From Escherichia coli (GTDB taxonomy: Bacteria > Pseudomonadota > Gammaproteobacteria > Enterobacterales > Enterobacteriaceae): DNA of 64,000 bases. The position numbers were made by a program, and so were the translations under genes. Positions within the stretch are counted from its first letter, which is position 1; each line of letters opens with the position of its first letter. The stretch lies in assembly GCF_003334385.1 (NCBI RefSeq), contig NZ_QOWN01000021.1. One strand, given 5' to 3'. Below are positions 7,154 to 7,524 of the stretch, piece after piece. The notes beneath the pieces were generated by a model. That model saw only the letters and a list, made by a program, of their open reading frames with translations, did not search any database and was not told the origin of the DNA.

Positions 7154-7524
7154 TAATTTGTCCTTTTCAGTCAGTGCAAAAGTCGAGTAAAAGGCATAAC
7201 CTATCACTGTCATAGGTAAGAGCTTAGATCAGGTGATTGCCCTTTGTTTATGAGGGTGTTGTAATCCATGTCGTTGTTGCATTTGTAAGGGCAACACCTC
7301 AGCCTGCAGGCAGGCACTGAAGATACCAAAGGGTAGTTCAGATTACACGGTCACCTGGAAAGGGGGCCATTTTACTTTTTATCGCCGCTGGCGGTGCAAA
7401 GTTCACAAAGTTGTCTTACGAAGGTTGTAAGGTAAAACTTATCGATTTGATAATGGAAACGCATTAGCCGAATCGGCAAAAATTGGTTACCTTACATCTC
7501 ATCGAAAACACGGAGGAAGTATAG
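7154..7524. promoter_or_regulatory. Divergent dsbG/ahpC control region (expected OxyR-regulated ahpC promoter)
   Basis: 370-bp non-coding region between divergent genes; GGAGG Shine-Dalgarno at 7512-7516 upstream of ahpC ATG; OxyR control is established knowledge, exact site not mapped here. Confidence 0.4.

Follow-up and report, generated by a model that had tools for sequence, protein, structure and literature searches.

The spacer between the divergent genes dsbG and ahpC of Escherichia coli (371 bp, positions 7154-7524 of the 64-kb stretch of DNA analysed here, which we call the window) contains two boxes matching the OxyR consensus, two promoters directed towards ahpC and, between the boxes, a conserved, structured, plus-strand RNA of ~104 nt which belongs to the Rfam family STnc70 (RF02069). 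We describe here the motifs, the conservation of the distal promoter, the covariation in the RNA structure, its family membership and its synteny, and set them beside published transcript ends. Taken together, we read the spacer as a dual-OxyR, dual-promoter region in which the RNA made from the distal promoter (P2) would be partly terminated and would itself be a functional riboregulator, a reading to which we assign a probability of roughly 0.55. The region is found in 5423 of 5426 complete E. coli genomes; window positions 6900-7800 share 100% identity with many complete E. coli genomes and are identical in K-12, where the NC_000913.3 coordinate is the window coordinate plus 631420. A preliminary description of this DNA had placed the spacer and its strings correctly (a palindrome string at 7303-7314 and a GGAGG at 7512-7516) and had suggested that further regulatory elements or an untranslated RNA might be accommodated in the extra length. 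The former are present as a second OxyR box (7190-7226) and a second ahpC-directed promoter (7237-7265), the latter as the conserved STnc70 RNA with published ends at 7273 and 7376. In place of the single OxyR site and lack of distal transcripts which the description had set as its counter-case, the spacer has two boxes and those two published ends.

OxyR boxes and promoters facing ahpC

The preliminary description had proposed a scan for the OxyR motif. We scored every window position against ATAGnTnnnAnCTAT-N7-ATAGnTnnnAnCTAT, that is, four ATAG-like elements at 10-bp spacing, with a core score out of 16 and an extended score out of 20, and two consensus boxes were returned in the spacer, at 7190-7226 and 7428-7464 (Table 1). 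The distal, dsbG-proximal box has the best score in the window, a core score of 13 being reached at just 2 of ~64,000 positions, its central dyad is the sole inverted repeat located in the spacer by a repeat finder, and the box is conserved in 15 related loci. The score of the proximal box is by itself not significant in count over the window; a box centred -76 to -80 from the ahpC ATG occurs in 22 of the 24 Enterobacterales sequences scored, with L007 and L024 having none in the proximal position at the score cut-off. Judged by their consensus, the two boxes are probably the OxyR sites of the spacer, one distal and one the classical ahpC site. Elsewhere in the window, the only other consensus matches with a core score of at least 12 lie at 20157-20193 (13/16) and 24832-24868 (12/16).

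The box centres, 7208 and 7446, are 238 bp apart, and the former lies 55 bp from the ATG of dsbG. Zheng et al. are said to have reported, in 2001, a distance of 238 bp between the OxyR sites, with one of them 54 bp from dsbG, and we take our box centres to match those footprint positions. In the same work the dsbG-proximal site reportedly induces a second ahpC transcript, and the ahpC-proximal site reportedly induces dsbG and ahpC. The spacer is the same locus and the same DNA, with the same two boxes, as the dual OxyR-site dsbG/ahpC region of E. coli K-12 treated by Zheng in 2001 and in the ahpC work of Tartaglia and Storz, and a peroxide-response control region in which OxyR sites and ahpC promoters each number two is already well studied. 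As two OxyR sites are stated for the dsbG/ahpC spacer (PMC6389858), the extra OxyR element is real and already known; a real dual-site, dual-promoter OxyR region was thus recoverable from sequence alone. A structured RNA and terminator between the OxyR sites are not described in the accessible papers on the K-12 region.

The distal promoter P2 has the features of a sigma-70 promoter, with recognisable hexamers, 17-bp spacing and a transcription start site (TSS) 8 nt downstream of the -10. Alignment A1 compares 15 sequences from 5' of ahpC, taken from Escherichia, Citrobacter, Enterobacter and Leclercia among others; neither the -10 nor the TG preceding it varies, and the hexamers overall are invariant or near so. 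The -10 of P2 follows the distal box at 70-72 nt in 13 of the 14 loci, and in the remaining locus the gap is 61 nt, shorter by about one helical turn. The RpoD catalogue made by genomic systematic evolution of ligands by exponential enrichment (SELEX) prints identical P2 hexamers for the ahpC side of the spacer (PMC3946193). The preliminary description had also proposed mapping of transcription starts, and for the plus strand public TSSs are available at both promoters, at 7273 (P2) and 7501 (P1), both directed towards ahpC. These come from Cappable-seq data in U00096.2 coordinates (window position = coordinate - 630643): position 637916, window 7273, lies 8 nt past the P2 -10 with a score of 4.2, and position 638144, window 7501, is the strongest start of the region with a score of 362 (PMC4782308). 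The latter is 24 nt 5' of the ahpC ATG and 8 nt past the TACCTT -10 of the main promoter, P1. The 7273 start alone is not strong evidence, because there are other weak plus-strand starts in the spacer, including 7209, 7297 and 7338 (PMC4782308), and these data were obtained without stress. The tables of single-molecule real-time (SMRT) Cappable-seq do not mention ahpC or dsbG.

A promoter and terminator scan of 7000-7700 returned one minor promoter-like site, at 7425-7454, and missed P2 because it required an A at -10 position 2, where P2 has a G. A TSS at 7461 (+), with a score of 10.6, fits the TTGTAA-18-GATAAT site at 7425-7454, inside the proximal box. Both this start and the one at 7209 are expected to be blocked when OxyR is bound.

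A structured RNA of the STnc70 family

RF02069 is the only Rfam family matched in the spacer; the match covers 7287-7380 (+) with 42.7 bits against a gathering threshold of 40 (E = 1e-6 and 2.4e-7), and a covariance model of our own, R1, scores 82.6 bits at 7264-7383. The homologs share a common fold which begins with a 5' hairpin 2-3 nt past the predicted start and continues with (G)CAACAC, two hairpins (HP1 and HP2), a GC-rich hairpin and UUUUUACUUU; the (G)CAACAC stretch is short and unpaired in these folds. The GCAACAC box is conserved in alignments A1, A2 and A4 and is single-stranded in most other genera. HP1 is GCCAGC/GCUGGC in the homologs as against GCCUG/CAGGC in E. coli, and HP2 is CUGAA.../...UUCAG. 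The GC-rich palindrome cctgcaggcagg pointed out in the preliminary description is real and forms HP1, the second hairpin of this RNA, although as a 5-bp stem (GCCTG/CAGGC) it would be weak evidence alone. No ATG and no conserved open reading frame (ORF) occur within 7273-7376.

Twelve homologs were re-aligned to R1, in place of an alignment by MAFFT and RNAalifold on A2 which had shifted HP1 by one column between Escherichia and the rest and thereby lost HP1 and the 5' hairpin. Across the 12 sequences 84.9% of pair cells are standard and 15 of 42 pairs are changed on both sides, against 8.4 +/- 1.6 double-changed pairs in shuffles, where 0 of 500 reach 15; a control in which the partners were slid by 1-3 columns gave 35-52% paired. 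Compensatory changes occur in all four helices: helix 2 (HP1) is 97% paired with compensatory changes in 2 of its 6 pairs, and helix 3 (HP2) also carries them, forming a perfect 11-bp stem in L010. G.U cells outnumber A.C cells by 61 to 9, which assigns the fold to the plus-strand RNA rather than to the DNA or the minus strand.

The fourth hairpin, HP3, and its U-run form a probable intrinsic terminator which is weak in E. coli, with one mismatch, one G.U pair and a folding free energy (dG) of -9.6 kcal/mol; in other genera the stems are perfect, GC-rich and 8-10 bp long, with dG of -16 to -21.5. The low stability in E. coli fits substantial read-through. A Term-seq 3' end at 638796(+), window 7376 (supplementary file 3; Adams 2021, PMC7815308), falls inside the U-run, 8 nt past the HP3 stem and 149 nt 5' of the ahpC ATG. 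It has a Rho score of 0.27 ('No') and an intrinsic-terminator score of 5.17, where at least 3 suggests intrinsic termination, and is classed as 'orphan' with no regulatory element noted (PMC7815308). Between the terminator and the proximal box, at 7398-7405, is an octamer, GTTCACAA, which is kept in most genera, including some without dsbG. Loops with GGA of the CsrA type were also considered by eye and rejected, GGA occurring only in Escherichia HP3 loops and not being kept elsewhere.

The distal box, P2, the four hairpins with their compensatory changes and the terminator are kept together in 11 related loci. Of 20 Enterobacterales loci, 10 have an STnc70 match 5' of ahpC, with scores of 43-76 bits overall and 56-76 bits in the relatives and a length of ~94 nt in every copy, and the element is always 135-165 nt 5' of ahpC and on the same strand. 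By tblastn with DsbG, the divergent gene was found in Escherichia, Citrobacter and three other loci only. Enterobacter asburiae (L007), Leclercia (L012, with a dsbG remnant), L010 and L014 have no dsbG, yet keep the whole module of distal box, P2, RNA and terminator. Retention of the distal module with ahpC in genomes without dsbG indicates that it serves the ahpC side rather than dsbG, and the preliminary description's term 'shared' control region therefore holds for its place between divergent genes and not for the element, which stays with ahpC even where dsbG is missing. Different parts of the module are kept in different genera. In Superficieibacter (L015), which has no dsbG, the distal box and P2 are kept and the hairpins and terminator are absent; in Mangrovibacter (L017) the distal box, P2, HP2 and the terminator are kept; Erwinia, Pantoea, Providencia and Brenneria have the proximal box only. 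Enterobacter sp. Ag1 (L011, 2306-2396) has a minimal RNA, lacking HP1 and HP2, which consists of the 5' hairpin, an unpaired CAACACC and a strong terminator (GGCCACCC...GGGUGGCC UUUUUU), which suggests that the core of the RNA consists of the box and the terminator. The gene dsbG was lost between citR and ahpC at 1814-2501 in L007, at 1710-2501 in L012 (remnant 1944-2090) and at 1831-2501 in L015, leaving 670-790 bp of non-coding DNA which still has the distal box and P2.

The founding member of the Rfam family in which the RNA falls was a prediction only: STnc70 is a predicted candidate of Salmonella Typhimurium in the dsbG/ahpC spacer, on the ahpC strand in the orientation <- -> -> (Sittka 2008 Table S3), and it agrees with the E. 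coli RNA in spacer, strand, hairpins and terminator. In E. coli ~57 nt of the Rfam model are missing from the first model hairpin (2 nt in place of 59), as in all 10 of the other non-Salmonella copies; the 59-nt insert of the model looks Salmonella-specific, because all 10 other loci are ~94 nt. Of the STnc70 copies, that of E. coli is the most degenerate: it scores lowest, its 5' hairpin is shortened and its terminator is weak. The Northern column for STnc70 reads 'np', which we take as not probed (Sittka 2008 Table S3). In the literature searched no function or regulator is assigned to STnc70, all text matches being to STnc700, and an RNA in the ahpC leader or 5' untranslated region (UTR) is not mentioned.

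Readings of the distal module

In the mechanism that we propose, oxidised OxyR would activate the dominant promoter P1 (TSS 7501) from the proximal box, and the TG-extended P2 (start G7273) from the distal box. The P2 transcript would fold into the 5' hairpin, HP1, HP2 and the terminator hairpin with its U-run; partial termination at ~7376 would release a ~104-nt non-coding RNA, the E. coli ortholog of STnc70, and read-through over P1 would give a long ahpC mRNA with a 252-nt leader, corresponding to the published second ahpC transcript. We infer that P2 is the OxyR-dependent start of that second transcript, and that the short RNA is peroxide-induced and functional, acting as a riboregulator and not a by-product of leader transcription. 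Two points favour a functional RNA: hairpins and a box beyond the needs of termination are kept, with compensatory changes, and in most genera the terminator that follows this dedicated promoter is a strong one.

Several observations weigh against this reading. The OxyR link of P2 leans on what Zheng and colleagues reportedly found in 2001 for the distal site and the second ahpC transcript, and the riboregulator role is putative. The alignment used for covariation had been fitted to the structure of the model and so leans toward it; in E. coli the RNA folds no better than shuffles (z = -1.13), its Rfam score is barely over the gathering threshold (42.7 vs 40) and the GCAACAC box is predicted to be paired. 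The simple terminator scan of 7000-7700 did not call HP3, because of its weak stem with a mismatch. The start at 7273 is minor without stress (4.2 vs 362 at P1) and is one of ~11 weak plus-strand starts in the spacer (PMC4782308), among which the one at 7209 (+), situated within the distal OxyR box, is stronger, with a score of 15.8, and P2 does not account for it. Salmonella STnc70 reads number 5 in the control and 7 in the Hfq co-immunoprecipitation, which is 1.4-fold, under non-inducing conditions (Sittka 2008 Table S3), and association with Hfq was not found for STnc70 in these weak read data. The significance of the RNA comes from the Rfam match and from the structure conservation and covariation in relatives, not from the fold of a single sequence.

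The chief alternative is an element that acts purely in cis, as a leader, attenuator or insulator; the terminator would limit upstream transcription over the proximal OxyR site and P1, thereby avoiding promoter occlusion or setting the ratio of long to short mRNA, and the ~104-nt RNA would be inert. We regard this as possible, though not probable. The fixed position of the element on the ahpC strand, 135-165 nt 5' of the gene, speaks for it, as do a terminator directly preceding the proximal OxyR box, an E. coli terminator weak enough to permit read-through, the lack of Hfq enrichment in Salmonella and the many comparable 5'-UTR ends in Term-seq. An insulator, however, needs the terminator alone, yet the 5' hairpin, HP1, HP2 and GCAACAC box are kept with compensatory changes, and the minimal version in L011 still has the box as well as the terminator. 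A dedicated OxyR-box-linked promoter whose transcripts mostly end before any gene is also hard to explain in this way, and the terminators of other genera are strong (dG -16 to -21.5). Compared with known riboswitch and attenuator cases, no ligand, upstream ORF or alternative antiterminator fold is evident, and a second promoter stands between the terminator and ahpC. The RNA is also like the small RNAs made from 5' UTRs by premature intrinsic termination, in the Rho-independent 3' end with an intrinsic score >3 (Adams 2021, PMC7815308).

The functional reading can be carried further, and we do so only tentatively: the conserved job of the distal OxyR site may be to switch on a stand-alone, peroxide-induced riboregulator of ~104 nt with a GCAACAC box, and not to regulate dsbG. 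It would then be a second OxyR-dependent small RNA of enterobacteria beside OxyS, acting in trans or, where dsbG is present, as an antisense to a long dsbG leader. We know of no small RNA other than OxyS that has so far been placed in the OxyR regulon. The two would be alike in being ~100 nt long, in their promoters linked to an OxyR box, in their several stem-loops and in ending at an intrinsic terminator, a likeness which is functional only and implies no family relation. They are unrelated in sequence and differ in that OxyS is a stand-alone gene divergent from oxyR, whereas the RNA here lies inside a 5' leader, 5' of a second promoter, and in that OxyS binds Hfq, whereas STnc70 is not enriched with it. 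Duplexes of the RNA with the start regions of ahpC, dsbG and ahpF, as predicted by RNAduplex, were long, loop-ridden and no better than shuffles, except for ahpF, where the result was uninterpretable.

A purely cis-antisense role, in which the plus-strand RNA would pair with a long dsbG 5' UTR and control dsbG, is unlikely. The OxyR-induced dsbG transcript is said to depend on the ahpC-proximal site (Zheng and colleagues, 2001), so that it should start at ~7390-7420 (-) and run antisense through 7273-7376; the genes are divergent, the transcripts so deduced would overlap, and a review calls the effect of OxyR on dsbG unclear or even repressive. Set against this are the retention of the distal box, P2 and the RNA in Enterobacter asburiae, Leclercia, L010 and L014, where dsbG is absent or a remnant, a fold which is specific to the plus strand, and the lack of a convincing minus-strand promoter near 7385-7430 in the sequence. 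Still less probable is the absence of any functional RNA, with the conservation reflecting protein sites in the DNA and the weak 5' and 3' ends being noise or degradation. The many weak TSSs across the spacer, the unremarkable fold z-score in E. coli and the modest 3'-end read counts would suit it; the compensatory changes in all four helices and the 61:9 ratio of G.U to A.C argue instead for selection on an RNA fold and not on duplex DNA, and the 3' end falls exactly in the U-run after a conserved hairpin. A hidden small-protein gene can be excluded for practical purposes: ORFs of 22-39 codons exist on both strands of the spacer, but they start with TTG or GTG, none is conserved, there is no ATG within 7273-7376, and insertions and deletions shift the frames of the 39-codon (-) and 27-codon (+) ORFs, so that neither is kept in Citrobacter or even in a different E. 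coli lineage.

For specialists, the interest of the locus lies in an OxyR-box-linked promoter, a covarying four-hairpin RNA and a terminator that are kept across Enterobacteriaceae 5' of the main peroxide scavenger gene, and in an RNA which fits public 5' and 3' end data and is unannotated in E. coli. Should the RNA prove to be active and induced by peroxide, the ahpC locus would gain a post-transcriptional arm; an element that is an attenuator only would explain how two tandem OxyR-dependent promoters avoid mutual interference.

Feature coordinates, flanking genes and minor observations

The features of the spacer and its flanking genes are collected in Table 1. Across 7186-7385, E. coli genomes carry no RefSeq annotation, and the stretch is likewise free of features in K-12.

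Table 1. Features of the dsbG/ahpC spacer and its flanks, in window coordinates.
Feature	Position	Strand	Details
dsbG (b0604) coding sequence	6407-7153	-	248-aa start at 7153; ORF list and RefSeq annotation of the identical K-12 sequence
Predicted constitutive sigma-70 dsbG promoter	7186-7213	-	ATGACA-16-TTTACT; listed in Shimada 2014 (PMC3946193); overlaps distal OxyR box
Distal (dsbG-proximal) OxyR box, candidate	7190-7226		AAAGGCATAACCTATCACTGTCATAGGTAAGAGCTTA; 13/16 core, 16/20 extended; central dyad 7199-7217
Distal ahpC promoter P2	7237-7265	+	-35 TTGCCC 7237-7242; 17-nt spacer; TG-extended -10 TGTAAT 7260-7265
Structured non-coding RNA, ~104 nt, putative leader of long ahpC transcript	7273-7376	+	Rfam, own model R1, public 5' and 3' ends
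5' hairpin	7275-7296	+	UGUUGC/GCAACA; contains conserved GCAACAC box 7291-7297
Hairpin HP1	7302-7315	+	GCCUG-CAGG-CAGGC; from folds
Hairpin HP2	7317-7341	+	CUGAAGAUACC-AAA-GGGUAGUUCAG; from folds
Hairpin HP3 and U-run, probable intrinsic terminator	7349-7380	+	HP3 7349-7368; U-run AUUUUACUUUUU; weak in E. coli
Proximal (classical ahpC) OxyR box, candidate	7428-7464		TAAGGTAAAACTTATCGATTTGATAATGGAAACGCAT; 10/16 core, 13/20 extended
Main ahpC promoter P1	7465-7501	+	predicted -35 TAGCCG 7465-7470; predicted -10 TACCTT 7488-7493; TSS A7501
ahpC Shine-Dalgarno and coding sequence	7512-8088	+	GGAGG 7512-7516, 8 nt 5' of ATG; coding sequence 7525-8088

The longest dsbG ORF begins at an ATG at 7213 and encodes 268 aa, as opposed to the RefSeq start at 7153. 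Its 20-codon extension (7154-7213, -) overlies both the distal OxyR box and the promoter predicted for dsbG, and the 248-aa start is credible because the extension is missing from the DsbG ORFs of Citrobacter and Enterobacter. In one E. coli record, NZ_CP125889.1, the match begins at query position 251, ~7150 in the window, and the record holds two places, so that the DNA may have been rearranged, or have received an insertion, at the start codon of dsbG. Downstream, Rfam matches in the ahpC-ahpF spacer are below threshold only and on the minus strand (8043-8213). The same spacer carries a terminator-like hairpin at 8226-8255 (+), TCGGGTGCTGCGGCACCCGA followed by TTTTCTTCCC, which may be an internal attenuator setting the ahpC:ahpF ratio.

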